Part shown: positions 2,856 through 59,717 of the stretch, piece by piece
Layout: the number at the start of each line of letters is the position of its first letter
Numbering within the stretch: position 1 is the stretch's first letter
DNA from: Paracoccaceae bacterium
GTDB lineage: Bacteria > Pseudomonadota > Alphaproteobacteria > Rhodobacterales > Rhodobacteraceae
Assembly (NCBI GenBank): GCA_965221845.1
Contig: OZ244919.1
Span: 698,334 to 762,333, forward strand
Reading direction: 5' to 3'
DNA: 64,000 nucleotides
Made by a program: the position numbers and the translations under genes
The notes under the pieces: generated by a model
Told to the model about the DNA's origin: nothing
The model's database searches: none
What the model saw: only the letters and a program-made list of their open reading frames with translations

Positions 2856-3474
2856 TCACCATTTGAACCACTGATGCTCTGCCCGCGAATCACGCGGCGC
2901 GCGCGACCTGCGCCACCGGGCGGTTGTCGTTGGCGCATTCCGGGGGCTTCCAGCCGCCGTGGCGGCCCGTGCCCGGTACCGGCGCGGCCCAGGCCCGGTC
3001 GAGGCGTCCGGACCCGGGGACGACCGGAAGGCCGGGCGCCCTGACCGCCGTCGCGTCCCCGGCCCTGTCCCGGGCGCTTCATCCTCGCCGTCACCAGGAC
3101 CTTGCTGGCGGACTCCGCTGAACCCGAACCGGTCGGGTGGCCCGCTTCGGCGGCGTCCGCGCATTCCATGCGGCGGCGGTTGCTGCGCAGGAAGGCCGGC
3201 TCCCGCCGGACGTCGCCGGTTCCCTTCCCCTTCGGCGGCAGATGCCGCAGCGCGTCGACCGCCCTGCCGACGCCCCCGGGATCGTGGGGCGGGACGTGCC
3301 GCCACCTCCCGGACCAGGCCGTTCCCTCTGCCGTGTCCGGGCCGAAGGCGGCGTCGGCCGCGGCGCCCGGATGCCGGGCCGCGTGCCGGAAGTCCGTCAG
3401 GGTCACGTCGGGGACCGGCGATTCCAGGAAGGCCCGGTTGTCCTTCGCGCCGTCCGCGACCGCCGCAGGCTTCA
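2856..3474 (-). pseudogene. transposase C-terminal part of the 2839-5552 element (frameshifted)
   Basis: The FLRSNRRRMECADAAEAGHPTGSGSAESASKVLVTARMKRPGQG motif (GSG..ES..K...R.K) is in ORF 2801..3796. The tail continues in another frame (ORF 2856..3305, ...AEHQWFKW) and stops just inside the terminal repeat. Confidence 0.5.
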
Positions 3475-4436
3475 GAGCTTGACCTAAAATGTGGATGGCC
3501 TCCCCCAGATGTGGCAAATCCCTGTCAGTTTCCACCCAGACAAGGAGGACACAATGGCCTGGGATGAGACCACCCGCGAAGAGCATGACCGCAAGTCGGA
3601 GCGATATGAAACCGACCTGACCGACGAGGAATGGCTTCTGGTCGAGCCGCTGCTTCCGGCCCCGGCGAAGCTTGGCCGCCGCCGGACGACCGACCTGCGC
3701 GAGACGTTCAATGCGATCCAGTACATGCTGGCCACGGGATGCCAGTGGCGGGCGATTCCCAAGTGCTTTCCGCCCTCTGCGACCGTCCAGAACCACTCCT
3801 GCGCGTGGCGCGACAACGGCGTCCTGTGGAACGGATGCTGGACGTGCTGCGCACGCTGGGCCGTGCGCAGGCGGGGCGCGAGGCGCAGCCGACGGCGGCC
3901 GCGACCGGCAGCCAGTCGGTGAAGACGACGGAGGCGGGCGGGCCGGCGGGTTGCGACGCGGGCAAGAAGGTCAAGGGGCGCAAGCGGCACCTGACGGTGG
4001 ACGTCGAGGGGTTCCCGATCGCGCTCCGGGTGCACGAGGCGGACGTGCAGGACCGGGACGGGGCGCCGGCCGTCATCCTGGCGATGCTGGAGAAGGCGCC
4101 GCAGGTGACGAAGCTGTGGGCGGACGGCGGCTACGCGGGTCCGAAGCTCGAGGCCGCGCTGGCGGAGCACGGCCTGGGGCCGGTCATCGAGATCGTGCAG
4201 AGGCCCAGGGAAACAAGGGGATTCACGGTCCCGTGCCGCCGCTGGGTGGTGGAGCGGACGTTTGCGCGGATGTCGCGGTGCCGGCGCCCGGGCCGAAGGA
4301 CTCCGGGCGGACGCTGGAGAGCTCGCTGGCCTGGGCGCAGCTCGCGGCGTGCCGGTTCCTGATGCGCCGGGTGGCGCGGGGCCAGGCGGCTGGAATCTCT
4401 TAACATATTGATATTATTGAATTATGATTCAAGCTC
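3475..4436 (+). mobile_element. IS5-family (IS1031-group-like) element, copy 1
   Basis: Ends are gagcttgacctaaaat ... gattcaagctc. 3-bp direct repeat TCA (3472-3474 and 4437-4439). Near-identical to the copy at 23092-24049. Confidence 0.85.
3554..4403 (+). pseudogene. IS5-family transposase, frameshifted
   Basis: It has the same N-terminus as the intact copy (MAWDETTREE...). A 2-bp insertion near 3826 (cctgTGgaacgg versus cctggaacgg in copy 2) and further changes near 4290 break the frame. Confidence 0.85.
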
Positions 4437-5564: not shown

Positions 5565-6186
5565 GGGTGTAGTTCAGATTTTTGACCCCGGCGGTCTGTT
5601 ACGCCATCCATGCGGCGTGCCGTGCAAGTGTCGGGCGAGCCGGCCGGCGGCGCGCGTCGAGGCAGATGCAGGAGTGCGCGTCATGACGAAGAGCGAAGGG
5701 AGCCGGGTGCACCGCCATCCGGACACGGTGGATTGTCTGGAGGGCCTTCCTGAGGACGAGGCACCGGCGCGGGCGGCGTTGCCGAAACCGGCGGCCGCGC
5801 CGTGCCCGCCCCTGCCGCCGCCGCGGCCCCATGGGCGGCGTCAGCGCGAAGAGCTGGCGCCGGCGGCGAACTTTCGCCGACAGGCGGCTGTCGTGCGCCC
5901 CCGCGGACCTCGGCGAGGTCGCGGCGGTTCCGGTCGCCGACGCCGAGAGGGGCCTGGCGCGGGCGATGATGGCCACGCACCACCCCGAGGGCGACGCCGC
6001 CTGTCCCGGCGGTCGCATCCGCTACTGGATCCGCTCACCGTCGCACGGCGGCGGCGTTCATGGACAGGCCGCAGGTCGACAGCGACGGGCTTCCCGTGAC
6101 GGAGGCCGGAACGGTGGAGGCAGGCCGATGGTTCCCGCCCGTTCGGGGCGGCGCGATGCCGTCCTTCGCGGGCGTGGACGGCAGAT
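5565..6186 (+). mobile_element. ISKra4-type left-end fragment joined to unrelated remnant sequence
   Basis: gggtgtagttcagattt and the first codons (SEGSRVHRHPDTVDCLEGLPEDEA) match the copies at 11231 and 55396 for about 200 bp. The sequence then diverges and ends at the stop of the neighbouring gene. Confidence 0.45.
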
Positions 6187-7407
6187 TCAGTGCCATTCAG
6201 AACCCTTTGCATGCAGCCGAACCATGAACCGCTCGTCCAGTTCGACCAGGTCGGGCTCAGTGCCGTTATGTTCCTTCATGCCCTTGACGATTTTCCGGGG
6301 AATCCCCATTCCCATGTGTTCCAGATATCGATAGTCGCGCATCACGTCCTTCAGCAGCTGGTTTCGCGCTGCCCGCGTCCCCGTCCGCATTCGATCCGGC
6401 GTTATGCCGTTGGGCGGCAAGCCCGGCGAAAGGATTTCCAGCCGGTCGCAGTACACCGCCAGCACGACATCCGTGCTCGTGAGCAGGTAGTCGCGGTGTA
6501 TGAGGGCGTTTACGATTCCTTCGCGAAGGGCATCACGGGGATAGGCAGGACGCTCCACGCGTCGTCCACCCAGCGCCTCGACGACCACGGGCGTGTTGCG
6601 CTGCACGAAATCCATGGCCTGTTCGACCAGGCCGTTTTCGACGATGCCGCCACCCTCGTCCAGCAAAGGTGCCATGGGACCGCGAAGAGCCGTGCGTTCC
6701 CGCGCATCGTAGTCCTTTTCCGTTCCGGGATAGGCGACGGCGTCCATCCCGGCATGTGGCAGGAACCGGTTCGGCGTCTTGCCAAACAGCAGCATGCCGC
6801 CGACGGATACGCCTTCCTCGGTCATGATCTCGGTGTTGACGAGAAGCGACTGCCACGCTTCCCCGTCTTCCTCGGCCGGCACGTCCTGCTGCCGGATGTC
6901 CCCGAAATAGTTTCGCAGCCGCCGGCGGTCCAGATCCGCGTGCGAGGCACCCGACACGGGCTGCAGTTCGGCGCGAACCGACCCTCTCCTTTGGAACAGG
7001 CGTGCGAGCTCTTCCCGACTTGCCTCCCGGCTTTGCGTCCCGACCCGCATCAGGTACCTGTTGGTGCTGTTGTGCCAGAGCGCATGCACGTCGTAGCCGG
7101 GCGTCACGCGGACGATGGCGATGTCGTTGCCGTCCCTGACATCGCGGACCACCTCGAAGAACGGAACGATTTCCGGCCTGATCTTGTCGCGGCAAACATT
7201 CATTGTCCATTCCTCGAGGTTGTCCCGGGTCAGGCCCGTGACCGATCCGTCGTCCTCGACTCCCAGAAGCACGATGCCGCCCGCGAGGTTCGAGAAGGCG
7301 ACCAGTTCCCTCGCGAGGTCCTGGGGGCTCAGATCGTCCCTCTTGAATTCCACGCCGGAGCTTTCGCCGTTCGCCAGGATTTCCAGCAATTCGTTGCGTG
7401 TCGTCAT
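6187..7407 (-). CDS. AlbA_2 (Schlafen-type) DNA-binding domain + HATPase_c_4 domain protein (RecG-C-terminal-like putative regulator/ATPase)
   Basis: 406-aa ORF. N-terminal ESSGVEFKRDDL...AFSNLAGGIVLLGVEDDGSVTGL is typical of AlbA_2. C-terminal REGIVNALIHRDY...DRLEILSPGLPPNGIT...RNQLL...EHMGMGI is typical of HATPase_c_4. It lies 3 nt downstream of the preceding gene on the same strand. Confidence 0.8.
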   Translation of the reverse strand: MTTRNELLEILANGESSGVEFKRDDLSPQDLARELVAFSNLAGGIVLLGVEDDGSVTGLTRDNLEEWTMNVCRDKIRPEIVPFFEVVRDVRDGNDIAIVRVTPGYDVHALWHNSTNRYLMRVGTQSREASREELARLFQRRGSVRAELQPVSGASHADLDRRRLRNYFGDIRQQDVPAEEDGEAWQSLLVNTEIMTEEGVSVGGMLLFGKTPNRFLPHAGMDAVAYPGTEKDYDARERTALRGPMAPLLDEGGGIVENGLVEQAMDFVQRNTPVVVEALGGRRVERPAYPRDALREGIVNALIHRDYLLTSTDVVLAVYCDRLEILSPGLPPNGITPDRMRTGTRAARNQLLKDVMRDYRYLEHMGMGIPRKIVKGMKEHNGTEPDLVELDERFMVRLHAKGSEWH

Positions 7408-7410
7408 GCC

Positions 7411-10101
7411 TCAGAACCCGTACTTGGAGCTGCGCGTCTCGAAGGCGGCCTTGCCGCCTTCAAGGATTTCCTCGACCAGTTCGCGCACCGGGCCGGAGTC
7501 GATGGAAGCCATGTGTTCCCGCGCGATCCGCGCCCGGCCCTCCTCGGCCGCGCCCGTTGCAGCCAGGCCGAGGATGAGCTCGGCATCGCCCAGGACCGGG
7601 ATGTTGGCGTTGTGCGTCGAGAAGATGAACTGGCGCCGGCGCTTTTCCTGCCGCATGATCGGCACCACGCCCTCCGCGATGAACCGGTTGTCGAGATCGT
7701 CTTCAGGCTGGTCGACTACCAGAGGGGCATCCGATTCCAGCAGCAGGAGCAACAGGACGGCCGTTGCCATCTGACCGGTCGAAAGCGCCTGAAGGGCCTG
7801 CCAGCTTGCCGGCTCTCCGTCGGGAGCCGTGTTCAACTCGATCTCCGTGGTTGCAGGCAGTTCCAGTTCCTCGATGCGCATGAACAGGTCCGGATCGGCA
7901 TGCGCGATCCGTTCCGCCGCACCGGACGGCAGCCTGTAGCGTGCCCTGAGCGCGTCCCTGCCCTCCCGGCACAGCTCGGCAAGTTCCCGAAGGGACAGCT
8001 GGTCAAGTCCCCGAAGGCGATCCAGGGCGGCTGCAAGATTGCCTCCGACCTCTCGCAGCAGCCGTTCAAGCGGCTCTCGGTCGCCGGCCATCGCGACCCT
8101 GACCTGAACCCTGTTGCGCAGTTTGCGGGACACGCGCCTGGAGGCTGTTTCGATCTGCCTGCGTTCTGCCGCCTTGACGTCCTCCCACTCCGCGAGCAGG
8201 TTGCGGCGCTGGGCCTCATGCGCTTCCAGATCGCGCTTGAGACGTTCCATCCTGTCGTTCAAGGGACGCAACTCCTCGATCTGCTGGCGCAGCTGGATGA
8301 ACTCCGCACCATCAATCTTCGATTTCTGGAGCTCGCGCAGGAGCCTTTCGTAGGTTTCCTCTGTTGCGGTCTTTCTCTCGTTCCAGCGTGATCTCGCATC
8401 CGCGATGGATTCATCGGCTTCGGCAAGAGCCGTGCCGAACCGATCGCTGAGTGTCTTCAGTTTCCCGCCGAGCGCTTCAAGCGCTGCCTCGATTTCGGAA
8501 AGGACTTCGGAGTTCGGCAGCCCTTCCAGTGCCTTGCTGGAAACGAATGCCGTATCGACGGGCAGTCCTTCGGCAAGTTCGTCGTAAAGGGTGCGGTAAT
8601 GGCCAATCCGCTCGCCCAGGGTCAGGAACAGCCGCTCCTCGCGAATGAGCTGGCTCCTTTCCTTCAGGCGCTCTTCGAGCCCGGCCTGCCGAAATCGCTC
8701 TTGCGTCTCTTCGAGACCCGGCAGCGCTGCAAGTCGCTCGTCGAGACGCGTCATTTCGCGGCGGACCTCCACGATGCGGCCGCGCGAGCGTTCGAGCTCC
8801 AGGCGCACCCTTGATTTCCGCCCCGAAAGAGCGGGATCACGTTCAATGAAACGTTCCAGCAAGAGCGTACGGTTCTTGGGACTCTTCGCAAGTTCGGATA
8901 TTTCGTGCTGTCCGAGGATCTCCACTCCCGGCATCACGTCACTTGGCGACAGGTTCAGGACTTCCCCCGCTTCATCCTTCACGACGGGTGGATTCGGTAC
9001 CGATCTTTCGATCGTGTAGAGCCGTTCGGACGGCTTGTGCGATCGCACGAGCAGCGAGACTTTCGTGCCTGATTGCAGGACATTCTTGATTACGCCCTCA
9101 TGGGCTTTCCGCGCATCCTCGCCAAGAGGGTCGAGGTCAAGGGCATAGCGCATGCTTTCGATCATCGTCGACTTGCCTGCGCCCCTCCCGCCTACCAGCA
9201 CGTTCAGGTTTTCGTTGAAGTGCACGGCCGTGTCGCGCAGGAACCCGCCCTCCCATGTCATCGCAATGAACTCGGCATGGGGATCGGGATCAGGGTCGCT
9301 GTGCAGGCGGATGCGGGAGACGGGGTCGAGAAAGGCCTGCCTGAACGCCTCGACCGAGACGGCGGACATCTTGATCAAGCAGGATGCCGCGCCGTCCTCG
9401 AGCATGTCCGGGTCGCTGACGTCCGAGGCGTTCAGAATCGCGAGCGGGCGGTCTCGCCGGTGCTCGGCGTCCTTGTTCTCGAGGATCGGCCTGATCCCGT
9501 CCGGCGCGGCAATGACCGGACCGGGCAGCGCACAGGCAAGCAGGTCGGGATTGGTCCAGGCATTGACTCTCGATTGTCCCGAGAGCTTCTTCAGCAACCC
9601 GCCGTCCGAGGCGACATGGGCTGCAATGCACACGGCGCCCCAGTTCCGGGCGCATTCAAGCAGCTCGATGGAATCCTTGCTCCCGGTCGGTGACGGTTGA
9701 TCTGTGCCGTAGATGCCGCATTCCCCGATGAATCGCTCCAGTGCGTCGTCCTTGTCCGGATCAAACAGGCACAGGAAATGAATGCCGTCTTTCGTGACGG
9801 CTTCGAAACCGTTGAAAGCATGGAGACCGGCATCGCGCGCTGCGTGCACGAGACCTGCCGAATGCTCGATGCGGTAGTGGTCCGTGACCGCGATGACTTC
9901 GATGCCGATTTCAGTGCATGCCTTGACCATCGCATTGTTGTATTCCTCTTCGGATCTGAACCTGGTCGGCTTTCTGTGTCTCTTGACATAGGCGAATGGA
10001 TTTACCTGCAAGGCACAGCGAAAGAATCGCGCTCCGCTTGGCAGGTCCAATGCGGCCTGCATGCGATCAGGGAGCCGATGCGCCAAACCGGTCGCGGTCA
10101 T
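7411..10101 (-). CDS. PHP-domain protein fused to an SMC/Rad50-like ABC ATPase (PplA-like)
   Basis: ORF 7411..10239. Start moved to ATG 10099-10101 (GGAGAA 7 nt upstream), because the longer 5' extension runs into a MITE. PHP-like IAVTDHY and AAHVASDGG. Walker A GGRGAGKST. Long coiled-coil middle. LSTGQ signature, VVDQPEDDLD Walker B/D-loop and FSTHNANI H-loop. Confidence 0.8.
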   Translation of the reverse strand: MTATGLAHRLPDRMQAALDLPSGARFFRCALQVNPFAYVKRHRKPTRFRSEEEYNNAMVKACTEIGIEVIAVTDHYRIEHSAGLVHAARDAGLHAFNGFEAVTKDGIHFLCLFDPDKDDALERFIGECGIYGTDQPSPTGSKDSIELLECARNWGAVCIAAHVASDGGLLKKLSGQSRVNAWTNPDLLACALPGPVIAAPDGIRPILENKDAEHRRDRPLAILNASDVSDPDMLEDGAASCLIKMSAVSVEAFRQAFLDPVSRIRLHSDPDPDPHAEFIAMTWEGGFLRDTAVHFNENLNVLVGGRGAGKSTMIESMRYALDLDPLGEDARKAHEGVIKNVLQSGTKVSLLVRSHKPSERLYTIERSVPNPPVVKDEAGEVLNLSPSDVMPGVEILGQHEISELAKSPKNRTLLLERFIERDPALSGRKSRVRLELERSRGRIVEVRREMTRLDERLAALPGLEETQERFRQAGLEERLKERSQLIREERLFLTLGERIGHYRTLYDELAEGLPVDTAFVSSKALEGLPNSEVLSEIEAALEALGGKLKTLSDRFGTALAEADESIADARSRWNERKTATEETYERLLRELQKSKIDGAEFIQLRQQIEELRPLNDRMERLKRDLEAHEAQRRNLLAEWEDVKAAERRQIETASRRVSRKLRNRVQVRVAMAGDREPLERLLREVGGNLAAALDRLRGLDQLSLRELAELCREGRDALRARYRLPSGAAERIAHADPDLFMRIEELELPATTEIELNTAPDGEPASWQALQALSTGQMATAVLLLLLLESDAPLVVDQPEDDLDNRFIAEGVVPIMRQEKRRRQFIFSTHNANIPVLGDAELILGLAATGAAEEGRARIAREHMASIDSGPVRELVEEILEGGKAAFETRSSKYGF

Positions 10102-10210
10102 CCGTGGTTCTCCGTCCGTTCCACTGTGTCGAACCTCATTCCCGCTCCGGTCGTTCTTGCTGTTCGGCGACGTATCGCTCAACCGCATCCCGTACAACCC
10201 ACGCCAGTGA

Positions 10211-10307
10211 GAGGCTGACCTAAAATTCATACCAAACACTATATGTTGTGCTAAAATCTCGTAAATAAGCCATTATAGTTCAATATATGGCATTTTAGGT
10301 CAAGCTC
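10211..10307. mobile_element. 97-bp MITE derived from the IS5/IS1031-like element (MITE-1)
   Basis: Both ends carry the IS5 left-end repeat (gaggctgacctaaaat ... attttaggtcaagctc). The core is AT-rich. 3-bp direct repeat TGA (10208-10210 and 10308-10310). Confidence 0.75.
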
Positions 10308-10515
10308 TGAGACCTTCTTCTGCCTGGCGAGCCTTTCCAGGGCCTCGTGGATTTCTGCTGGAAAGCTGATCGATGCACGCGCAGATGCCGTTCCTTGGGC
10401 TTTCATGACCTGCCTGCTTTCCTTGATGTGCCGGCCTGGCGCACTGTGGCCCGAACTCCAGTGTTCACCACATTACACCATGAAGGTGAAGTGATGAAAG
10501 TCCGAAACATCAGAC

Positions 10516-11110
10516 GGGGTGCGTTCCAGATTTCTTGTCAAGCTGCCGTGGCCCGATTCGCCCGCCAGCCGAGGCTGGTCGAGCAGCCGGAAGTTCATGG
10601 TGCAGCTTCTCAGCGCGAGCATGGCATTGGCGCCCCTCCGGGTCTTCGCACGCGTTTCCGACACCCTGTCCGAGGAGTCGGGCCTCGAATGCGCGCCCGG
10701 CGCAAGAAGGTCCTCCGGCCAGAGGACCGGACGCTCGAGAGGCGGCCCGACGCACAGGGCCGTGGCCGTCGTGGACGTGCCTGGATGTCTGGTCCGCTTC
10801 ACGACCCTCCCGGCCGGGCGCACGGCCCGAGGGGGTGCCGGACCTGCGCGACGGCCTTGCGTCGGGGACGCTGGCCGGGGACATGGCGTTCAGCGCGGAC
10901 CGGCTGCACGGGGACGCGGCGGAACCGGACGATGCAGCGGGCGCATGACCGGGACATGCGATTCTGGCGGCACCCGACGGAGAGCCTGTCCGCCAGGACC
11001 GGGAAGTTCCGGGCGATCGTGACACGCTGCGCCAGGATCGACGGGAGCTTCGCGGCGGGGATTCACCCCGTCGCCGGCGTGGTCGCCGCGACATGACTGT
11101 CAACGGGCCC
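10516..11110. mobile_element. mosaic of IS remnants: ISKra4-type right-end fragment plus a decayed IS427-like copy
   Basis: ggggtgcgttccagattt terminus at about 10516. A minus-strand RRGANAMLALRSCTMNFRLLD fragment lies at about 10580-10640. Plus-strand VSDTLSEESGLE ... FRAIVTRCARIDGSFAAGIHPVAGVVAAT ends at the terminal repeat tgtcaacgggccc (11098-11110). Confidence 0.5.
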
Positions 11111-11357
11111 TGACTCGAATCGTCTTCGACTTTTTCATTGAACGCGCTCTGGCCGAAAGGGGCGCAGAACAGCGGCTGACGCCCCCGACCTTGCTATCCG
11201 GCTTCGACCTCCCGGGCCTTTCAAAGAACCGGGTGTAGCCCAGACTGGTTGACGACCGCGATTCTCTTCTGCCACGCTTTCCCTGCGGCGCATCGTGCAA
11301 CGGCCGGACGAACCGGCCTGCGGCGCGCCGCATGAGGCAGATGCAGGAGTGCGTGTC

Positions 11358-12885
11358 ATGACTGACGAGAGCGAAGGGAGCCGGGTGCACCGCCATCCGG
11401 ACGCGGCGGACTGTCCGGAGGGCCTTCCCGAGGACGAGGCGGCGGCGCATCCGCCGCCGGTCCGCAGGCACGCAGGCGGCCACACGCGATGCTGGATCGA
11501 GGGGGGCGAGGTGCGGAGCCGCGACGTCGCGGGGGACGGCACGCCCGAGGCGCTGCCGGGGCGGTCCCGTCGGAGTTCGGTCCGCTGCCGCCGCGGCTGG
11601 CGGCGGACCCGGGCTCGGGGGTTCCGGACCTGGACGGCGTGGAGCGGGCGCTCCGGGACGCCTCGCCGGGCGGCGGCGCGGCGGCGCCGAGCTTCTGCCG
11701 GGCGGCTGGACGCGACGCTGCCGGCGCCGGAGTGCGCGGCCTGCGGCAGGCCGACGGCCCGGCATTCGGCGACGCCGAAGTCCTTGCCTCGAGCCGGCTG
11801 GGGCGGGTCGAGGCGGAGCGGTCGCGTTTCCGCTGCCGGTCCTGCGGCGGGGGATGCTTCCCGCCGGACCGGGCGCCGGGCCTTGAGGGCGAGACGGTGA
11901 CGCCGGGGATGGCGAGCGTCATCGCCGGGACCGTTCCGCTCATGGGCTTCGAGGCGGCGAGCCGGCATGTCGACAGCCTCGCCGGGGCGGACGCCTCGTC
12001 GAGCTCGCTGCAGCGCCGGGCGCCGGGCTCGGCGAGGCGGCGGCCCGCTTCGAGCGCGAGGAGGTGCCGGACGGCAGGCCGCCGGAACCGCGCATGCAGC
12101 TCTCCGTCGACGGCGCCGGCGTCCCGATGCGCAGGGAGGAGACCGAGGGCGTTCGCGGCAGGCAGGCCGACGGCACCTCGAGGACCCGAGAAGCCAGGCT
12201 TGCGGTCATCTGCACCGCCGAGGGCCGGGACCCCGGGACCGGCGCGGCGGCGAGGACCGGGGCGGCGAATCCGTCACCTGCCTGACCGGCGGCGCGGCGG
12301 CGCCGTCCGGAGGCCGGGAGGCCTCGGACTTCGCGGCGCGGCCCGACCGGGAGGCCCGGCGGCGGGGGCTGCACGACGCGGGCGGGCCCGTCGTCGTCTC
12401 CGACGGGGCGGACTGGATCCCCAACGCCTGCGAGGATCTCTTCGGGGGCCGGAAGGCCGCCTTCGTGCCCGGCCTCCTCCACTGCCCGGAACGCGCCTCC
12501 GACGCCGCGAGGCGGTCCTGCCGGCGGGGGCGGAGCGGGACCGGCGGTTCGCGGAGGCGAGGCGGACGTCAGGGCGGGCCGGGCGGCGAAGGCCGTCCGG
12601 GATCTCGCGCCGTCCGGGGACCGGCACGGGGAGGTGGAGGCGTGCCGCTATTTCGAGAGGAACCTCGGCCGGATGCGGCACGACGGGTTCCGGGAACGGG
12701 GCGTCCGGGCCGGAAGCGGCGTCGTGGAGGGCGGATGCAGGCAGTTCGGGCTGCGGACGGAGCGCTCCGGCGCCCGCTGGTCGAAGAGGGGCGCCAACGC
12801 CATGCTGGCGCTGAAGGGCTGCGCCATGAACCTCAGGGTGCCCGACTTCCTCGAATGGCGGACGAATCAGGCCATCGCCGCATGA
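11358..12885 (+). pseudogene. ISKra4-family transposase with several frameshifts
   Basis: The pieces lie in three frames: MTDESEGSRVHRHPD...; FRCRSCGGG...; VDGAGVPMRREETEGVRGRQADGTSRTREARLAV; VVVSDGADWIPNACEDLFGGRKAAF; YFERNLGRMRHDGFRERGVRAGSGVVEGGCRQF...RWSKRGANAMLALKGCAMN. Confidence 0.7.
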
Positions 12886-12892
12886 GCAACTA

Positions 12893-13763
12893 GGGCCCGT
12901 TGACACTCATGTCGCCGCGACCACGCCGGCGACGAGGTGGATCCCGGCGGCAAAGCTCGCGTCGGTCTTGTCGTACCGGGTCGCGATCGCACGGAACTCC
13001 CTGGTCTTCGCGAAGAGGCTCTCCACCAGGTGCCGCCACCCGTACACCTCCCGGTCATGCGCCCGCGGCACCGTCCGGCTCCGCTTCGACGGAATCACCG
13101 CCTCCGCCCCGCGTTCCGCCAGGTCCTCCAGCAGCCAGTCCGCGTCGAACGCCCTGTCGCCGACGAAGGCCCCGAACGCCAGGCCGTCGAGAAGCCCCGG
13201 CACCCCCTTGAGGTCGTGCGCCTGGCCGGGAAGGATCCTGAAGCGGACCAGATAGCCGAGCGCGTCCACGACGGCCACGGCCCTGCTCGTCAGGCCGCCT
13301 CTGGAACGACCGATCCCCTGGCTCGAGGTCCCCCTTTTGCGCCGGACGCCTTCTGATGCGCCTGGACGACCGTGCCGTCGACGAACACCCACTCGAGGCC
13401 GGACTCCTCGGACAAGGCGTCGGAAACGCGTTCGAAAACTCCCGAAAGCGCCCAGCGCCGGAACCGCTTGAAGACGCTGTTCCAGTTCCCGAACCGCGCG
13501 GGGAGGTCGCGCCACGGCGACCCCGTGCGGAACCGCCAGAGCACCGCCTCCATGAAAAGGCGGTTGTCCGCCGCCGTGCCGCCGGGATCGGACTTCTTGC
13601 CCGGCAGCATGTCCTCGATCCGCGCCCACATGGCGTCGGTCAGAACCGTCCTGTCTGCATTCATGATGTCACCTGTTTCCTGCCCGTGCCGCCGTTCCGG
13701 CGGTCATCGGGGAAGGAAATGGCATGGAAGCGGGCGATTCGCAAGGCAACTGTCAACGGGCCC
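12893..13763 (-). mobile_element. IS5-family, IS427-group-like element inserted into the right end of ISKra4 copy A
   Basis: Terminal inverted repeats gggcccgttgaca (12893-12905) and tgtcaacgggccc (13751-13763). TA on both sides. Removing it restores ...catgagcaacTAatctgggctacaccc, which matches the right end of copy C at 57381-57406. Confidence 0.8.
12907..13664 (-). CDS. IS5-family transposase, orfA/orfB joined by a probable -1 frameshift (appears intact)
   Basis: orfA is 13290..13664 (MNADRTVLTDAMWARIEDMLPGKKSDPGGTAADNRLFMEAVLWRFRTGSPWRDLP). orfB is 12907..13629 (IGRSRGGLTSRAVAVVDALGYLV...DRAFDADWL...FRAIATRYDK). GCAAAAGGGGG at 13330-13340 allows slipping from orfA into orfB. Confidence 0.75.
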
Positions 13764-14734: not shown

Positions 14735-15003
14735 CAAGTGCCCTCCCCGCACCTGCGCATTGACATAAGCCGTTCCGCGTCCCGCCGCAAGACAGCGGCG
14801 CTTGCCGTGGCGATCCTGACCGGCGCCGTCGGCCTGCGCGGCGGACGCACCGCATCCCGCCACGGCGCGGACCGCCAGACGACCGGACGCCATGATCGAC
14901 GACCTGATGCCCCGCGTTGCGCCACGATGGCGATCCTTCGCCGCTCGCCGAGGTCCTGAATGAGGTCGATCGCCGCCACCCGGCCTTCCCGCGCGAACCC
15001 TGA

Positions 15004-15101
15004 GAGCTTGGCCTAAAATTCATGCCAAGAAACTATATATAGTGCTAAAATCTTGAAAATATGCCATTATATTTCAATATATGGTATTTTAGGTCAAGCT
15101 C
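15004..15101. mobile_element. 98-bp MITE derived from the IS5/IS1031-like element (MITE-2)
   Basis: gagcttggcctaaaat ... attttaggtcaagctc. 3-bp direct repeat TGA (15001-15003 and 15102-15104). Internal sequence is about the same as MITE-1. Confidence 0.75.
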
Positions 15102-15404
15102 TGAGAGCCTGGCCGGACGAATGTCCTGCCCGAGCTCCCGGCGGCAGCGAAAGCGCCCGGATGAACACCGGTCGGGCCAGGATGCCGTCCAGGCGGGCGA
15201 CGCTCTCTGCTTGCGGCCGCCTGCACAGCCATGCCGGCGTGACTGGCCAGGCCCGGGACCGTTCTGCAGCAGGTTTCCCATGGTCGCCCGCCGCGTCTCG
15301 CCGAGGCTGTTTTCGCGACGTCGGCAACAGACATTCTTCTCATGCGCCTCCAGGGTCCGCTCTCGCGATGCTGCCCGCAGCAGCCGCATCGCCGCCAGCC
15401 GGTT

Positions 15405-22835: not shown

Positions 22836-23091
22836 GCTCTTCGCGCGCGCGGCGCGGCCATGCCTCCCGGAACGGCGAACGCCCTCGTCCCCCCGGACGT
22901 GCCCGAACGGGCAATGACCGGCCGTTCGCCCAACACCGGGGCCATGCGGATCCCGCCGGGCCCGCGGCGGACGCCCTGCCCGACCTGGGCGCGCAAGGTC
23001 CGGCCGGTTGTCGTCGACGTTCGGCGAACGCGCGCCGCCGGCTTCGCCGCGCAGCCCACCCCGCGCGCATGCGGTCAGGCGCCCGTCCTGA

Positions 23092-24049
23092 GAGCTTGAC
23101 CTAAAATGTGGATGGCCTCCCCCAGATGTGGTATTTCCCTGTCAGAGGCAAACCAGACAAGGAGGACACAATGGCCTGGGATGAGACCACCCGCGAAGAG
23201 TATAACCGCAAGTCGGAGCGATATGAAACCGACCTGACCGACGAGGAATGGCTTCTGGTCGAGCCGCTGCTTCCGGCCCCGGCGAAGCTTGGCCGCCGCC
23301 GGACGAACGACCTGCGCGAGACGTTCAATGCGATCCAGTACATGCTGGCCACGGGATGCCAGTGGCGGGCGATTCCCAAGTGCTTTCCGCCCTTTACGAC
23401 GGTACAGAACCACTTCTACGCGTGGCGCGACAACGGCGTCCTGGAACGGATGCTGGACGTGCTGCGCACGCTGGGCCGTGCGCAGGCGGGGCGCGAGGCG
23501 CAGCCGACGGCGGCCGCGATCGACAGCCAGTCGGTGAAGACGACGGAGGCGGGCGGGCCGGCGGGATACGACGCGGGCAAGAAGGTCAAGGGGCGCAAGC
23601 GGCACCTGACGGTGGACGTCGAGGGGTTCCCGATCGCGCTCCGGGTGCACGAGGCGGACGTGCAGGACCGGGACGGGGCGCCGGCCGTCATCCTGGCGAT
23701 GCTGGAGAAGGCGCCGCAGGTGACGAAGCTGTGGGCGGACGGCGGCTACGCGGGTCCGAAGCTCGAGGCCGCGCTGGCGGAGCACGGCCTGGGGTCGATC
23801 GTCGAGATCGTCCAGCGGCCCAGGGAAACAAGGGGCTTCACGGTCCTGTACCGCCGCTGGGTGGTGGAGCGGACGTTTGCGTGGATGTCGCGGTGCCGGC
23901 GTCTGGCGAAGGACTTCGAGCGGACGCTGGAGAGTTCGCTGGCCTGGGCGCAGCTCGCGGCGTGCCGGTTCCTGATGCGGCGGGTGGCGCGGGGCCAAGC
24001 GGCTGGAATCTCTTAACATATTGATATTATTGAATTATGATTCAAGCTC
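23092..24049 (+). mobile_element. IS5-family (IS1031-group-like) element, copy 2, apparently intact
   Basis: Same termini as copy 1. The flanking trinucleotides are TGA (23089-23091) and TCA (24050-24052), so they are not identical. Confidence 0.9.
23171..24016 (+). CDS. IS5-family DDE transposase (281 aa, uninterrupted)
   Basis: MAWDETTREEYNRKSERYETDLTDEEW...IDSQSVKTTEAGG...DVEGFPIALRVHEADVQDRDGA...LWADGGYAG...RRWVVERTFAWM. Confidence 0.9.
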   Translation: MAWDETTREEYNRKSERYETDLTDEEWLLVEPLLPAPAKLGRRRTNDLRETFNAIQYMLATGCQWRAIPKCFPPFTTVQNHFYAWRDNGVLERMLDVLRTLGRAQAGREAQPTAAAIDSQSVKTTEAGGPAGYDAGKKVKGRKRHLTVDVEGFPIALRVHEADVQDRDGAPAVILAMLEKAPQVTKLWADGGYAGPKLEAALAEHGLGSIVEIVQRPRETRGFTVLYRRWVVERTFAWMSRCRRLAKDFERTLESSLAWAQLAACRFLMRRVARGQAAGIS

Positions 24050-52777: not shown

Positions 52778-53799
52778 GAGCTTGAATCATAATTCAATAA
52801 TGTCAATATGTTAATAGATTCCAGCCGCCTGGCCACGCGCCACCCGGCGCATCAGGAACCGGCACGCCGCGAGCCGCGCCCAGGCCAGCGAGCTCTCCAG
52901 CGTCCGCCCGGAGTCCTTCGGCCCGGGCGCCGGCACCACGACATCCGCGCAAACGTCCGCTCCACCACCCGGCGGCGGCACGGGACCGTGAAGCCCCTTG
53001 CTTCCCTGGGCCGCTGCACGATCTCGACGAGGGATCCGAGGCCGCGCTCCGCCAGCGCCTCCCCGGGCTTCGGACCCGCGCAGCCGCCGTCCGCCCAGGG
53101 CTTCCGCACCTCGGGCGCCTTCCCGGCATCGCCAGGACCGCCTCCGGCGCCCCGTCCCTGTCCCGCACGTCCGCCCCCGCAGCACCCGCACCGCGACCGG
53201 GACCCCCGCGACGTCCACCGCCAGGTGCCGCTTCCGCCCCCTGGCCTTCCTGCCCGCGTCGCAACCCGCCGGCCCGCCCGTCTCGGTCGTCCTCGCCGAC
53301 CGGCTGCCGGTCGCGGCCGCCGTCGGCTGCGCGTCGCGCCACGCCTGCGCGCGGCCCGGCGTGCGCGGCGCGGCCGGAAGCAGCCAGTGCCGGCGCGCGC
53401 CGAGCTGGTCCCGGCCCGGCGTGCGCGGCGCGGCCGGAAGCCGTTCCAGGACGCCGCTGTCGCGGCCCGGGCGCAGGAGTGGTTCTGCACGGTCGCAGAG
53501 GGCGGAAGGCGCCTGGGAATCGCGCGCCGCCGGCATCCCGTCCCCGGCATGCACTGGATCGCGTCGGACGTCTCGCGCAGGTCGGCCGTCCGGCGGCGGC
53601 CCGGCTTCGAGGGAGCCGGAAGCGGCGGCGCGGCCGGAAGCCGTTCCTCGTCGGCCGGCCGGTTTCATGTCGCTCCGGCTTGCGGTCATGCTCCTCGCGG
53701 GCGGTCTCGTCCCAGGCCATCGTGTCCTCCCCGTCCGGGTTGTGCCTGACAGGGAAATGCCACGTCTGGGGGAGGCCATCCGCATTTTAGGTCAAGCTC
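52778..53799 (-). mobile_element. IS5-family (IS1031-group-like) element, copy 3, divergent and decayed
   Basis: Termini gagcttgaatcataattc ... attttaggtcaagctc. TCA direct repeat (52775-77 and 53800-02). An internal tandem duplication of about 59 bp sits around 53354-53470. Confidence 0.8.
52811..53720 (-). pseudogene. IS5-family transposase, decayed
   Basis: MAWDETAREEHDRKPERHET... then frame breaks. The pieces are spread over ORFs 52803..53720, 52811..53785 and 52852..53550. Confidence 0.75.
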
Positions 53800-53935
53800 T
53801 CAGGGGGAATCGGGGTTGAACGGGCACTTTCCGCGGCCCGCCGCCCTCGGTCGGGCCAATCCCTCCCTGCGTCCGGCGGGCCGCGGAAGCCGCTCGGGGT
53901 GTAGCCCAATTTTTTTGACTCTGGCGTTTTGGGGT

Positions 53936-55306: not shown

Positions 55307-55395
55307 GGTCATTGTCCTGGCAGGCGTACCGGGGAGGTGTCGGGAGAATCGGCTGACGGCGCGCTGTCCGAGGCATTGGGCAGGGAGCGCGGGAA

Positions 55396-57385
55396 ATGAC
55401 GCGGAACGGCGGAACTCAACACCGGCATCCGGACGCAGTGGATTGTCTGGAGGGCTTGACGGAAGGCGAGGCGGCCGTGCATCCGCCGGTGGTGCGCGAG
55501 CACGAGGACGGGTTCACCCGGTACTGGCTGGAGGGCGGCGAGGTGCGGAGCCGCGACGTCAGGCGGGACGAGCTTCCGCTGGCAGGCGCCGGGTCGCCGG
55601 GGGCGGCACTGGCGGAGTTCGGTCCGCTGCTGCCGCGGCTGGCGGCGGACCCGGGCTCGGGGGTTCCGGACCTGGACGGCGTGGAGCGGGCGCTCCGGGA
55701 CGCCTCGCCGGGCGGCGGCGCGGCGGCGCAGCGCTTCGAGCGGGAGGAGGAGACCGAGGGCGTTCGCGGCAGGCAGGCCGACGGCACCTCGAGGACCAGG
55801 GAAGCGAAGCTCGCGGTGGCGTGCACCGCCGAGGGCCGGGACCCCGGGACCGGCGCGGCGGCGAGGACCGGGGCGGCGAATCCGTCACCTGCCTGACCGG
55901 CGGCGCGGCGGCGCCGTCCGGAGGCCGGGAGGCCTCGGACTTCGCGGCGCGGCCCGACCGGGAGGCCCGGCGGCGGGGGCTGCACGACGCGGGCGGGCCC
56001 GTGGTCGTCTCCGACGGAGCGGACTGGATCCCGAACGCCTGCGAGGGGCTCTTCGGGGGCCGGAAGGCCGCCTTCGTGCCTGGCCTCTTCCACTGCCCGG
56101 AACGCGCCTCCGACGCCGCGAGGCGGTCCTGCCGCCGGGGGCGGAGCGGGACCGGCGGTTCGCGGAGGCGAGGCGGACGTCAGGGCGGGCCGGGCGGCGA
56201 AGGCGGGCCGGGAGCTCGCGCCGTCCGGGGACCGGCACGAGGACGTGGAGGCCTGCTGCAGGCATTTCGAGAGCGGGCTCGGCGGGATGCGGTACGGCGA
56301 GTTCCGGGAGCGGGGCGTCCGGGCCGGAAGCGGCGTCGTGGAGCATCCATGTCTTGGGTCAAGCCCGGATCCGGCCCTTTCCGGGGGCCGGGACCGGGGT
56401 TTTCCACAGCCTGTCCACATCCCGGCGGCGGTCCGGGCAGGCGGAAGCGGCCGGACGGCTGGTTCCCTTCGGGCCCGTCCGGGCGTCAGGCGGCGGCGGC
56501 CGCCGACCTGTCCTCCCGTCTGCGCCGGTCGCGGAGAAGGACGTTCGCGGTGACGGCGAGCTTCCGCATGACCGCGGTCACCGCGACCTTGCGGGCCCTG
56601 CCCCCTTGGCCCGGGCCGGCCGTGCATCTCCTTCGTGTCGGGATCGGACATGCAGGCCGCCATCGCCGCCATGTAGAGGACGTCCCTGGGACGCCGCCGC
56701 CCGCCGGTGATGCGGCGCCCGCCCCTGAGGGTGCCGCTGTCGCGGGCGAAGGGGGCGACGCCGGCCAGGGCGGCCGGCACGCGCGCGCCGGCCCTGTCGG
56801 TCTTCGCCAGCTCGCCGCCGGCCCTGGGGAGGTCCCGGGACTGGCGCGGGCTGGCCACGCATGCGGCGAAGCCCCGGTCGTGCAGCGACTGCAGGAGGGC
56901 CCGGTGCATCCGCCCCGTGGCCTCCGGGACGGCCCGCGCCGCCTTCCCCTCCCGGAGGAGGCGGGCGACCTTGCGGAAGCCGTCCGTGTCGCTGGTCGCG
57001 GTCCCGTCCCGCCCGCCCAGGCGGATGTCCGGCGTCTTCCTGCTCACGTCGATTCCCGCGGCTGCGGTGGCCATGTCTCCCGCTCCTGTCCTCGCGACGG
57101 TCCGGCTCCCGGACCCGGCATCGACCGGGAGGGCGCCGGGAGGCAAGGGACGGCCTTTCCACAGGAAATCGCCTCCAGCCTGTCCACAGCCACCTCCCCT
57201 GGTCATTGCCGGTTCGCTGAACATGCGAGGGCGGATGCCGGCGGTTCGGGCTGCGGACGGAGCGCTCCGGAACGCGCCGGGCGAAGAGGGGCGCCAACGC
57301 CATGCTGGCGCTGAAGGCCCTGGTCATGAACCTCCGGCTGCCCGGCTTCCTGGAATGGCAGGCGAATCAGGCCGTCGCCGCATGA
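55396..57385 (+). pseudogene. ISKra4-family transposase of copy C, frameshifted and interrupted
   Basis: MTRNGGTQHRHPDAVDCLEGL...YWLEGGEVRSRDV; VVVSDGADWIPNACEGLFGGRKAAF; FESGLGGMRYGEFRERGVRAGSGVVE, then an insert, then ...FGLRTERSGTRRAKRGANAMLALKALVMN ... stop 57383-85. Confidence 0.65.
56344..57229 (-). mobile_element. internally deleted IS110-family remnant nested in ISKra4 copy C
   Basis: Delimited by alignment of copy C against copy A (gtcgtggag | insert | ggcggatgc). The minus strand encodes MATAAAGIDVSRKTPDI...EATGRMHRALLQSL...AGVAPFARDSGTLRGGRRITGGRRRPRDVLYMAAMAA. It is too short for a complete element. Confidence 0.6.
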
Positions 57386-57504
57386 GCAAAAAATCTGGGC
57401 ACACCCAGCCGCTCGGCGAGGCTTGCACCGTCCCGAAAGCTCGGCTACGCTTCCTCATGAAAAGATTTCCGCCTGGACTGACCGGTTTGGCGCACGGGGC
57501 CACC

Positions 57505-58384: not shown

Positions 58385-59694
58385 CGCCGCTTCCACTCCG
58401 AAGTGCAACATCAGCCAGCGAGGGGCGAAGCCCGAGCGGCGGCGGTCCCTTCACCGGGAGGCGTAGCCAGTCTTCCGGGGCGGTGCAAGCCCTGCCGGGC
58501 GCTGTCCGCGGCCCGCCGGACGCAGGGAGGGCGGAGCCCGACCGGAGGACGGCGGGCCGCGGACAGCGCGCATCTCCCCTCGGAGCCGCCCCCGGCGGCC
58601 CCGGAAGGCCCCCTCAGGGCGGCTGCGCCTGGTGGAAGGCCTCGGACGGGGTGAGGTAGCCCAGCGCCTTGCGCGGCCGCGCGTTGAGGCGGTCCTGGAC
58701 GGCCTGCACCTCTGCGTCCGTCACCTTGCGGAAGTCCGTGCCCTTCGGGAACCACTCCCGCACCAGCCCGTTCACGTGCTCGTTCAGGCCGCGCTCCCAG
58801 GAGTGGCAATGCCGCGCGAAGAAGAACCCCGCGCCCAGCGCCTCGGCCACCCTGGCATGGCCCGCGAACTCCTTGCCGTTGTCCGCGGTGACCGTGTGCA
58901 CGGGGAGAGGGCCCAGCATGCCGGTCATGGCCGAGCCGACCGCGTCCGCCGTCTTCCTCTCGACCCTTTCGAGCAGCGTGTACTTGGACGCCCTGTCCAC
59001 CAGGGAGACAAGCGCGCCGCCGGTGCCCTTGCCGTTGATTCGTGTCGGCCTCCCGGTCGCCGACCCGTTCCTTCGCCTCCACGACGTCCGGGCGCTCGGA
59101 GATGTCCACCCGGCCCGGGATGCGGCCGCGGCCCGCGTGGGCCCCGCCCTTCCGGTTCGGCTTCCTGCCGCGGCGGCGGAGATGCCGCCAGAGACCGCCG
59201 CCGGCCTTCCGGTCGGCGTGGATGCGCTCGTAGATCCACTGACGCCCCGCCATCGGCGCGCCCTCCTTGCGGAGGCGCCCGCTGACCTGCTCGGGGCTCC
59301 AGCCCTCGGCCAGCCGCTCCTCCGCCATGCGCCACAGCTCCGGCGTCATCTTGCGCGCCACCGACGAGGCCGCGCTGCGGCGCCTGTCCGACTTGCGCTG
59401 GGCCTGCTTGTGGCGGTAGCCGCGCCTGCCGGCGTTGCGCCGCACCTCGCGCCAGACCGTCGTGCGGTCGCGGCCGGGCTGGCGGGCGATCGCCGGGCCG
59501 GAAAGCCCGCTTTTCCTCAGGGCGTGGATCTGGCAGCGTTCCGCATGAGGCCGGTGGCGATGGCCCTCGGGCATGACGGTCTCCTTCTCGCAACGAAGGA
59601 ACTGTCGCCGCCGCCTGGCCGATTCGCAACATCATGTGTCGCCGAACGACCAGGAACACTGCATCAGGTGTTGCACTTCAGAGTGGAACGGGGG
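58385..59694 (-). mobile_element. IS30-family element, copy 2
   Basis: Same inverted repeats as copy 1. 3-bp direct repeat TTG (58382-84 and 59695-97). It lacks the 61-bp insertion of copy 1. Confidence 0.85.
58614..59574 (-). pseudogene. IS30-family transposase with the same single-base frameshift as copy 1
   Basis: ORFs 58411..59574 and 58614..59000. The extra base is at 59039-40 (reverse complement reads gacacgAatcaacggcaaggg). Confidence 0.85.
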
Positions 59695-59717
59695 TTGTAT
59701 TTTAGGTCAAGATTTTA

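Follow-up and report, generated by a model that had tools for sequence, protein, structure and literature searches.

Within a 64,000-nucleotide stretch of the genome of a Paracoccaceae bacterium (contig OZ244919.1 of assembly GCA_965221845.1, positions 698,334 to 762,333; referred to here in its full length as the window), two adjacent genes encode a large ATPase and a smaller protein with a nuclease-like and an ATPase-like domain. These genes are a copy of trlF and trlG, a pair known from the temperature restriction locus (TRL) operon of Photorhabdus. The genomic positions of their relatives, the predicted active sites of their products and the published genetics of the Photorhabdus operon together suggest that the pair probably forms an anti-phage or anti-plasmid system of the abortive-infection type. 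The two genes are arranged as follows.

7411..10101, minus strand: trlF, encoding 896 amino acids (aa), with a PHP-like N-terminal domain and a Rad50/SMC-like ABC ATPase head interrupted by a coiled coil
6187..7407, minus strand: trlG, encoding 406 aa, with a Schlafen/AlbA_2 nuclease-like domain and a GHKL-type (HATPase_c_4) domain

Identification of the gene pair

A preliminary description of this DNA, made from its letters alone, had reported two co-directional genes separated by 3 nt. The junction reads TTC TGA GGC ATG and bears this out, with the trlF stop codon TGA at 7413-7411, a GGC spacer of 3 nt and the trlG ATG at 7407. When read from its first GTG, the large open reading frame (ORF) spans 7411-10239 of the minus strand; a start at the ATG of position 10101 gives a product of 896 aa. 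The shorter product is supported by homologues of 898 aa and by the GGAGAA that precedes the ATG at 10101. The extension upstream of 10101 is artefactual: the frame reads through into a regulator gene that has been split and into the miniature inverted-repeat transposable element (MITE) that interrupts it.

The large protein passes the NCBIfam model NF045780, 'TrlF family AAA-like ATPase', with 486.1 bits against a cutoff of 350, and the match runs end to end (residues 23-895 on profile positions 2-944 of 944). Reference-type TrlF members score 514-582 bits on this model, and every TrlF that was compared passes it. The protein had previously been taken for a Ppl-type ATPase, and homology to Ppl is indeed evident from the PADLOC model for that system (PDLC02208; 117 bits, E 1.7e-34, best stretch 770-891). 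Membership is another matter, however, as the protein fails the NCBIfam Ppl model NF042955, on which it scores 144.8 bits against a cutoff of 1000 with its best stretch at residues 765-891. It also fails the Spaf_1101 model (154 vs 475).

The small protein carries the two domains that had been recognized in it, and both score above the Pfam cutoffs: SLFN_AlbA_2 (PF04326) with 62.2 bits (cutoff 25.3) and HATPase_c_4 with 68.3 bits (cutoff 26). The same combination is found in TrlG of Photorhabdus laumondii, whose temperature restriction locus is the operon trlR-trlF-trlG (Hapeshi et al. 2020, PMC7554251). In that operon TrlF is a large protein that carries the annotation 'histidinol phosphatase', and TrlG, with its AlbA_2 and HATPase_c_4 domains, had formerly been misannotated as RecG (PMC7554251). 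Homology to the pair on the Y. ruckeri plasmid pYR3, which is named in the same paper, extends over the full length of both proteins (TrlF 25% identity, E 1e-46; TrlG 31%, E 8e-45), as does homology to a pair from Vibrio (TrlF 33%, TrlG 40%). The two-gene architecture, previously regarded as undescribed, is therefore one that has already been described and named, as the trlF-trlG pair of the TRL operon.

Pairing and distribution of the family

One genome per GTDB species was scanned for TrlF relatives, and more than 586 were returned, of which the best 80, 33-85% identical, were taken. Pairing was counted in the 77 of these 80 loci that have enough downstream sequence, and residue conservation was scored in 79 TrlF and 64 TrlG homologues. 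A TrlG-like gene follows trlF on the same strand, 3-175 nt downstream, in 65 of the 77 informative loci. The preliminary description had proposed such a count as a check, and also that this locus had recruited, or needs, a Schlafen-like sensor or effector. The count shows regular pairing. Recruitment of a Schlafen-like partner does not set this locus apart; the partner is the ancestral state of a large clade. The same association is apparent from the TrlG side, since a TrlF-family gene lies directly upstream in both TrlG proteins whose contigs were retrieved, and TrlF is co-annotated at the match in most plasmids that carry TrlG.

Paired loci span Pseudomonadota, Acidobacteriota, Chloroflexota, Actinomycetota, Nitrospirota, Planctomycetota and an ANME-1 archaeon. 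The archaeal contig (L045, 1558-5508) carries the full pair, with TrlF 48% and TrlG 49% identical to the proteins of the window, and this complete pair shows transfer of the module between domains. The TrlF family comprises at least 1,209 clusters at 50% identity (E<=1e-30) in bacteria and archaea, there are several thousand 90%-identity clusters for each of TrlF and TrlG, and the name TrlF is already assigned by the NCBI pipeline in many genomes and on many plasmids. Phage records that carry relatives number only five, and these relatives are distant. Many conjugative plasmids of 160-230 kb from Klebsiella, E. coli and Proteus carry trlF-trlG, and on pYR3 the two genes overlap.

At one further locus (L057, 8595-10870, in a metagenome-assembled genome (MAG) of Candidatus Poriferisocius) an insertion of about 2.2 kb interrupts trlG. 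It contains two ORFs, one of 201 aa and one of 545 aa, the latter with a faint match to Cas12f1-like_TNB (TnpB-like), a composition consistent with IS200/605-type disruption of a presumed toxic gene.

Association with known defence systems

The genes that surround trlF and trlG in other genomes provide information about the function of the pair. In Vibrio it is located inside a complete BREX-1 system, in the order BrxC-PglX-TrlF-TrlG-PglZ-BrxL, on 24 contigs and three plasmids. Three other loci (L013, L028 and L075) have the order HmaB-TrlF-TrlG-HmaC, which places the pair between the Hma methylase and HmaC, and a fourth (L025) has the order DUF1156_MTase-TrlF-TrlG-PLD_helicase. When the nearest ORFs flanking 74 loci were compared with PADLOC models, roughly one in four gave a match (E<1e-10). 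The systems represented are Hma, mads, BREX, DISARM, type I and type III restriction-modification, PDC-S11, SoFic and PbeA. Loci with TrlF only adjoin an AAA_21/DUF4276 pair or a type III restriction-modification system.

BREX was considered as the general context of the pair and was rejected, because by PADLOC the long flanking genes are mostly Hma/DUF1156 methylases with HmaC or a PLD-helicase, and nesting in BREX, though real, was confirmed mainly in Vibrio. By this census of neighbours the pair resides in defence islands, in the sense that it occupies a recurrent position next to or inside known systems in unrelated genomes. The earlier proposal of a candidate defence module thus gains its backing from the BREX-1, Hma and DUF1156-methyltransferase nesting in other genomes, from which we infer a role in defence.

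Domain organization and predicted active site of TrlG

The AlphaFold2 (AF2) model of TrlG is usable (predicted local distance difference test score, pLDDT, of 82), and its two domains were examined by alignment, by Foldseek search and by residue conservation.

7021..7365, minus strand: AlbA_2/Schlafen-like domain of trlG (aa 15-129), with E15, S17, E20-F-K22 and G49-V-E-D-D53
6214..6471, minus strand: HATPase_c_4/GHKL-like domain of trlG (Pfam aa 313-398), with the N-box E296/N300 just upstream

The first Foldseek match to the model is DIP2311 (PDB 3lmm; E 5e-19), which has an equal two-domain architecture. The N-terminal half matches SLFN14, SLFN11, SLFN13, SLFN12 and SLFN5 and the SAMD9 tRNase domain (E 6e-6 to 1e-3), and the C-terminal half matches GHKL kinases, BCKDK, PDHK and the ATP-binding domains of histidine kinases. 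In profile alignments, ExxxxEFK...GV(E/D)DD of TrlG falls on 'ESASIEFK...GVDDES' of SLFN13 and on 'ESTHVEFK...GVDD' of SLFN14. As judged by these alignments, TrlG keeps the Glu/Glu/Asp catalytic motif of the Schlafens in the form of E15, E20 and the cluster E51-D52-D53. Conservation is high at these positions (E15 in 63, E20 in 60 and D52 in 54 of the 64 homologues), and the titles of PDB entries name SLFN11 E209A and SLFN14 E211A as active-site mutants. In the Schlafens, the residues with which E15, E20 and D52 align belong to the active site.

The C-terminal domain is a predicted GHKL (Bergerat-fold) ATPase, as its Pfam score, N-box, glycine-rich boxes and modelled fold all indicate. Residues E296, N300, S327-P-G329, N333, N349 and G368 of its GHKL-like motifs are present in 64 of 64 homologues, and G366 in 63.

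Domain organization of TrlF

TrlF consists of an N-terminal domain followed by an ATPase head that is divided by a coiled coil.

9292..10044, minus strand: N-domain of trlF (aa ~20-270), PHP-fold phosphoesterase-like, with motif I L-Q-V-N-P in place of H-x-H
8119..8835, minus strand: coiled-coil insertion of trlF (aa ~423-661), with long AF2 helices at 423-459, 476-511, 531-591 and 598-661
7414..7854, minus strand: C-terminal ATPase half of trlF (aa ~750-896), with the LSTGQ signature, Walker B DQPE, D-loop and H-loop H830; the region common to Ppl and AriA

The motifs listed in the preliminary description of the 896-aa protein are all present, namely the coiled coil, Walker A GGRGAGKST (aa 304-312), LSTGQ (773-777), DQPEDDLD (797-804) and STHN (828-831). 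Pfam identifies AAA_23, AAA_21 and SMC_N, and there are weak matches to Rad50 and SMC models. The protein has the full set of elements of an ABC ATPase of the Rad50/SMC type: Walker A, Q-loop, signature, Walker B, D-loop, H-loop and a coiled coil between the half-heads. The key residues K310, Q398, S774-G776-Q777, D797/E800, D801/D804 and H830 are kept in 78-79 of 79 homologues. About 240 residues separate the half-heads, and the coiled-coil helices reach a pLDDT of 60-89 in an AF2 model of TrlF that is otherwise of low confidence. A sequence search of the PDB returned no solved structure of TrlF or TrlG.

The N-terminal domain had been described as PHP-like, a claim that stands for the family. 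On the window protein itself the Pfam PHP model (PF02811) reaches 17.8-19 bits, under its gathering score of 26.4. The same model is matched at E<0.1 by 19 of 22 diverse TrlF N-domains (best 2.4e-8), and a profile built from these 22 domains finds in the PDB the PHP phosphoesterase 3e0f (E 6e-6), 9etk, the PolC PHP domain and an RNase AM-type 5'-3' exoribonuclease. A predicted PHP domain is therefore supported at the family level and is not established from the window protein alone. Residues H75, H108, H162, D227, R216, K244 and R263 are invariant in the 79 homologues, and E100 is present in 78. When TrlF is aligned to 3e0f and 9etk, the PHP metal-ligand motifs other than motif I (DH, E, H, H, D) are found, and by this alignment and the order of the motifs the conserved residues correspond to the canonical ligands.

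Motif I of the window protein is Q32-V-N34. This QxN form occurs in 75 of the 79 homologues and HxH in 2 distant members, whereas TrlF of the pYR3/Photorhabdus type keeps the canonical motif I, DFHLHT (L091:4383-4700 vs window 9990-10044). The clade with the canonical motif I has a Gln in the active-site motif of TrlG, and the reverse holds in the clade of the window. The two TrlFG clades, as their motifs read, may divide the catalytic labour differently.

Genetics of the Photorhabdus operon

Experimental evidence on the pair comes from P. laumondii, in which spontaneous mutants able to grow at 36°C carry trlG substitutions, stop codons or insertion sequence (IS) insertions (PMC7554251). Deletion of the trl operon likewise relieves the arrest of growth at 36°C, and complementation brings the arrest back (PMC7554251). 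The operon shows temperature-induced transcription and is carried by only 21 of 46 Photorhabdus genomes (PMC7554251). In total, 16 distinct lesions were found in trlG and none in trlF, a gene ~2.3 times larger (PMC7554251). If loss of trlF relieved the arrest, ~70% of lesions would be expected in that gene, and by our own calculation the chance of finding 0 of 16 there is ~0.3^16, or ~4e-9. The distribution of lesions therefore identifies TrlG as the toxic component, and either toxicity does not require TrlF or loss of TrlF does harm.

The lesions were mapped onto the window TrlG through the numbering of pYR3, used in place of the P. laumondii TrlG sequence. This mapping was checked by four of four identities at an offset of +2 in the C-terminal half and by S16 and A36 at no offset in the N-terminal half. 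S16N corresponds to S17, V35I and A36V to V36 and A37, R126Q to R127, P318R and P318L to P332, N335D to N349, and G354V to G368. The residues at these sites are kept at >=95% among homologues. As the sites fall in both domains of TrlG, both domains are needed for toxicity.

A regulator gene interrupted by a MITE

Upstream of trlF lies a third gene, for a CopG/ribbon-helix-helix (RHH) regulator, that the preliminary description had missed. It had placed a MITE at 10211-10307 as the boundary of the module. The element is real and these coordinates are exact, but it lies within the module, where it interrupts the regulator gene.

10407..10507, minus strand: conserved upstream region, proposed to act as promoter or operator, holding TGGTGTAATGTGGTGAA at 10464-10480
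10311..10406, minus strand: 5' fragment (32 codons) of the CopG/RHH regulator gene, in the position of TrlR, defined by alignment with the unbroken genes of loci L001 and L002
10211..10307, no strand assigned: MITE of 97 bp inside the RHH gene, flanked by the two copies of a TGA target-site duplication (10208-10210 and 10308-10310)
10136..10210, minus strand: 3' fragment of the CopG/RHH gene (helix 2 and tail), ending in a stop codon at 10138-10136, with 34 nt between it and the ATG of trlF

In L001, L002 and six more loci, which are the closest relatives, the gene directly upstream of trlF encodes a small protein of the form '...SISFPP(D/E)IY..LE.LA..KKVSLAWVVRDAVERYV', and the MITE is not present at this site in L001 or L002. 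Removal of the MITE and one copy of TGA restores an uninterrupted 56-aa ORF whose product passes both Pfam RHH_1 (27.3 bits, cutoff 20.5) and RHH_5 (27 bits, cutoff 26). In the truncated product the beta-strand and helix 1 are kept, and helix 2 is replaced by residues encoded by the MITE. As read from these frames, the insertion knocks out the regulator of the module. The RHH type of regulator is found in about 8 of 80 loci. We considered this gene as TrlR and rejected the assignment, the 56-aa CopG/RHH protein having no resemblance to the 79-aa TrlR of pYR3. Evidently, the position of the regulator is taken by unlike proteins from one clade to another. The QxN motif and the RHH regulator are variants at the level of the clade, and the feature specific to this locus is the MITE-split regulator.

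The MITE is AT-rich and bears terminal inverted repeats GAG(G/C)(C/T)TGACCTAAAAT. A second full copy is located at ~15.0 kb (14999-15106; 91% identity), and the end of the element has seven matches in the 64-kb window vs 0 expected by chance. The family to which it belongs is characterized by a length of ~97 bp, terminal inverted repeats GAGCTTGACCTAAAAT, a TGA duplication and IS5/IS1031-like habits; further copies or ends are located at 3470-3490, 23087-23107, 53784-53804 and 59699-59719.

Homology of the upstream DNA with L001, L002 and L006 ends at 10507/10491. The window, L001 and L002 share the element TGGTGTAATGTGGTGAA, on the minus strand ~60 nt upstream of the RHH start codon, which may serve as an extended -10 element or as an operator for the RHH protein. 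The sole sigma-70-like match in 5900-10650 is TTTACG-16-TATAGT at 10265-10238 of the minus strand, within the MITE and facing trlF, where 0.6 such matches are expected by chance. As a weak lead, this match could substitute for the native promoter severed by the insertion.

Genomic setting of the module

DNA homology with L001 and L002 sets the limits of the module at 10507-6191. Its GC content is 0.61-0.65, vs 0.72-0.76 for the flanks, and the DNA of L001, a Paracoccaceae MAG, is 87.5% identical to the window over 4 kb. A GC content 8-10 points under that of the flanks, together with this nucleotide identity, argues for horizontal transfer. Relative to L001, dN/dS is 0.21 for trlF and 0.14 for trlG, which indicates purifying selection on both genes in a measure that is blind to very recent silencing. 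Both ORFs are intact and keep all conserved catalytic residues. The locus is an intact, horizontally acquired copy of trlF-trlG and an ordinary member of the family, its regulator split by a MITE.

Remnants of mobile elements adjoin the module on both sides.

5595..5770, no strand assigned: ISKra4-like element fragment directly downstream of trlG, 84% identical to 11268-11448 and 72.5% identical to 55323-55472
10347..11111, no strand assigned: IS5-family fragment directly upstream of the module, with inverted repeats shared with the IS5 transposase gene 12786-13439 and a weak NCBIfam IS5 match

An IS fragment had been placed at 5565-6186; an IS-like character, of the ISKra4 kind, is demonstrable only for 5595-5770. 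The same left end is found in two larger copies of this element, at 11268-12890 and ~55323-57389. In the copy at 11.3-12.9 kb, two frames match the NCBIfam ISKra4 transposase model weakly and below its cutoff, which fits a frameshifted relic. An IS5-family transposase gene (DDE_Tnp_1) lies at 12907-13629, and an inverted, degraded partial copy lies at 10578-11111. Similarities of the IS elements suggest that the high-GC host is probably an alphaproteobacterium. A group II intron occupies ~0.8-2.8 kb (825-2769) of the minus strand; its reverse transcriptase (RVT_1) is encoded at 825-1898, and 2554-2769 matches Rfam RF02005 D1-D4. Further away, a patch of 35% GC in this 70% GC genome (59993-61501) encodes a 502-aa protein with a Capsule_synth domain (PF05159). 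IS30-like fragments lie beside it (HTH_38 at 58411-59574), followed by a GNAT-type gene at 62277-63308. The Capsule_synth gene looks like a recently imported surface-polysaccharide gene.

Proposed function and alternative explanations

We consider TrlFG to be a horizontally acquired, intact module that probably constitutes a two-protein anti-phage or anti-plasmid system of the abortive-infection type. The nesting within BREX, Hma and DUF1156 systems, the genetics of TrlG and the analogy to other pairs of ATPase and effector make this the best supported mechanism. The finding that toxicity needs both domains of TrlG and not TrlF fits a logic in which one protein is sensor or restrainer and the other effector. 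From these lines of evidence we infer the defence role, the division of labour between TrlF and TrlG and the substrate. TrlF would be driven by ATP to sense foreign nucleic acid or proteins, may also be a nuclease, and would probably restrain TrlG. TrlG would be the effector that cuts RNA (tRNA or rRNA, in the manner of Schlafens) or DNA and so stops growth. Repression of the operon would normally fall to the RHH protein, and the temperature restriction of Photorhabdus would represent heat-triggered autoimmunity of TrlFG. For the fuller proposal, that the family is a widespread two-gene abortive-infection system in which a PHP-ATPase checks a Schlafen-type RNase, frees it on infection and causes temperature restriction through autoimmunity, we judge the case evenly balanced.

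Several observations weigh against a defence system of this design. Many loci, for example those of Desulfobacca and Photorhabdus, lie among housekeeping genes outside defence islands. There is no TrlG in 11 of the 77 TrlF loci, all among the less similar TrlFs (33-55% identity), and TrlF is found without TrlG on plasmids of Staphylococcus, E. coli and Xanthomonas; these loci and plasmids indicate that TrlF can work alone. The replacement of both motif-I histidines by QxN in this clade (75/79) makes phosphoesterase activity uncertain, TrlG of the pYR3/Photorhabdus type has Gln at the second catalytic Glu, and in the window the regulator gene is destroyed. The AF2 model of TrlF, from homologues 77-90% identical, has a pLDDT of 53 and was too poor for a fold search. 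PADLOC v2.0.0 is without a TrlG model and recognizes TrlF only via its Ppl model, mostly in the C-terminal 120 residues. The searchable literature yielded no experiment in which TrlFG was assayed for restriction of phages or plasmids. Searches on TrlF/TrlG, on AlbA_2 with HATPase_c_4, on Schlafen with PHP and on Schlafen with Ppl found no defence study. The papers found that cite Hapeshi 2020 concern Photorhabdus biology only, with no defence study among them, and the text of PMC7554251 makes no mention of phage, toxin-antitoxin systems or abortive infection.

The authors of the Photorhabdus study proposed a growth regulator that responds to stress or temperature, which would sense a signal and halt replication, for instance to achieve synchrony with the host or to limit IS elements, with no anti-phage role. 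The only experimental phenotype is an arrest of growth at 36°C with temperature-induced transcription (PMC7554251), and the loci among housekeeping genes would suit such a regulator. However, the patchy distribution of the pair over at least eight phyla and an archaeon, its presence on conjugative plasmids and its nesting in BREX, Hma and DUF1156 systems are typical of defence genes rather than of thermoregulators, and fewer than half of Photorhabdus genomes (21/46) carry the operon (PMC7554251), so that we regard this explanation as quite unlikely. A toxin-antitoxin-like addiction module for plasmids or genomic islands, with TrlG as toxin, TrlF as neutralizer and no specific anti-phage sensing, accords with the restriction of loss-of-function lesions to trlG and never trlF (PMC7554251), the frequency of the pair on plasmids, the tightly coupled or overlapping genes and an RHH autoregulator of the kind typical of toxin-antitoxin operons. 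An 896-aa SMC-like ATPase with a PHP domain would nevertheless be a very elaborate antitoxin, and deletion of the whole operon is easy in Photorhabdus, where it is chromosomal (PMC7554251). The BREX and Hma nesting again points to defence, and an addiction module would overlap with abortive infection without ruling it out. We hold addiction to be rather unlikely.

A DNA-repair or end-processing machine resembling SbcCD or Mre11-Rad50 would join the nuclease and the ATPase in one chain of TrlF and use TrlG as a 'RecG-like' DNA-binding accessory. Weak matches to Rad50 and SMC models, the 'double-strand break repair' GO term that PGAP attaches to TrlF and the exonuclease function of PHP domains in PolX and PolC (10.1101/2025.09.30.679545) are compatible with this idea. 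The family is, however, sporadic and mobile rather than core and is nested in defence systems, and its second protein has a Schlafen nuclease motif, not a helicase, the name 'RecG' being a misannotation (PMC7554251); repair is a highly improbable function. A different concern is that the copy in this genome is an inactive relic, its regulator wrecked and its native promoter severed by the MITE, and the locus decaying in an IS graveyard. The split RHH gene, the IS5 and ISKra4 debris and the group II intron around the module would agree with decay. Two intact large ORFs, the presence of every catalytic residue and dN/dS values of 0.14-0.21 speak against it, and the sigma-70-like match in the MITE faces trlF and could drive the genes, though this is weak given 0.6 matches expected by chance. 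We therefore think it unlikely that the module is inactive.

The proposal of an abortive-infection system is of interest for the family more than for this particular locus. TrlFG is a common Schlafen-containing pair that is often located within known systems of phage defence, BREX and Hma among them, and the only published phenotype of the pair is an unexplained, temperature-dependent arrest of growth. Context and active-site evidence together provide a testable hypothesis, that TrlFG is a Ppl-related defence system with a Schlafen-like nuclease effector. If this is true, a frequent system would be added to defence catalogues, in which PADLOC now sees a partial 'Ppl' match, and the Photorhabdus phenotype would be explained as autoimmunity. 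The pair would also supply a bacterial functional counterpart of the antiviral Schlafen nucleases of animals and lengthen the list of shared immune modules.

Comparison with known systems

Ppl was reportedly described by Gao et al. in 2020 as a single-gene anti-phage system. It is a proven defence gene, and in a 2024 preprint it is still called an uncharacterized single-gene system (PMC11482910). TrlF shares with Ppl a PHP domain, an ABC/SMC-like ATPase and a similar length, with homology strongest in the C-terminal ATPase half. The two differ in that Ppl acts as a single gene, whereas TrlF of the window's clade is nearly always paired with TrlG, a conserved partner whose gene is translationally coupled to trlF in the window.

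In PARIS, Lamassu and Gabija, ABC/SMC-like ATPases sense for or restrain separate effectors. TrlFG resembles PARIS (AriA/AriB), Lamassu (LmuB/LmuA), Gabija and the OLD nucleases in combining an ABC ATPase that has the same motifs with a separate nuclease-type effector, and TrlF gives weak matches to the AriA, LmuB and GajA models and to AriA in PDB 8v46. The requirement of the effector alone for toxicity resembles the release of AriB from AriA in PARIS. In contrast to these systems, the pair in the window has a Schlafen-like and GHKL effector and no TOPRIM or Cap4 effector, its ATPase itself bears a PHP domain, and at the level of sequence it is not a member of any of these families.

Schlafens restrict viruses through the cleavage of tRNA or rRNA. 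The N-domain of TrlG has the fold and the ExxxxEFK...GVDD motif of SLFN11, SLFN12, SLFN13 and SLFN14, the SAMD9 tRNase and the Schlafen domains associated with pAgo, and the PADLOC pAgo and Aga models match TrlG. Unlike the eukaryotic Schlafens, which have a two-lobed core, TrlG has a single AlbA_2 lobe that is fused to a GHKL-like domain rather than a helicase, and its sequence similarity to them is marginal (profile E 0.014-0.9). Over the whole architecture of TrlG the best match is DIP2311 of Corynebacterium diphtheriae (PDB 3lmm; Foldseek E 5e-19, profile E 4e-18), which differs in its length of 583 aa with extra domains and is an uncharacterized structural-genomics protein.

The TRL operon offers the most direct comparison. 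The window has the same two-gene core in the same order, tightly coupled and with a small regulator gene upstream, and the residues hit by loss-of-function mutations in Photorhabdus are conserved in its TrlG. It nonetheless represents a distant clade, with PHP motif I in the form QxN vs HxH in pYR3-type TrlF. The window TrlG is ~25-35 aa longer and keeps both catalytic Glu residues, where pYR3 TrlG has Gln at the second, and its regulator is a disrupted 56-aa CopG/RHH protein in the place of the 79-aa TrlR.

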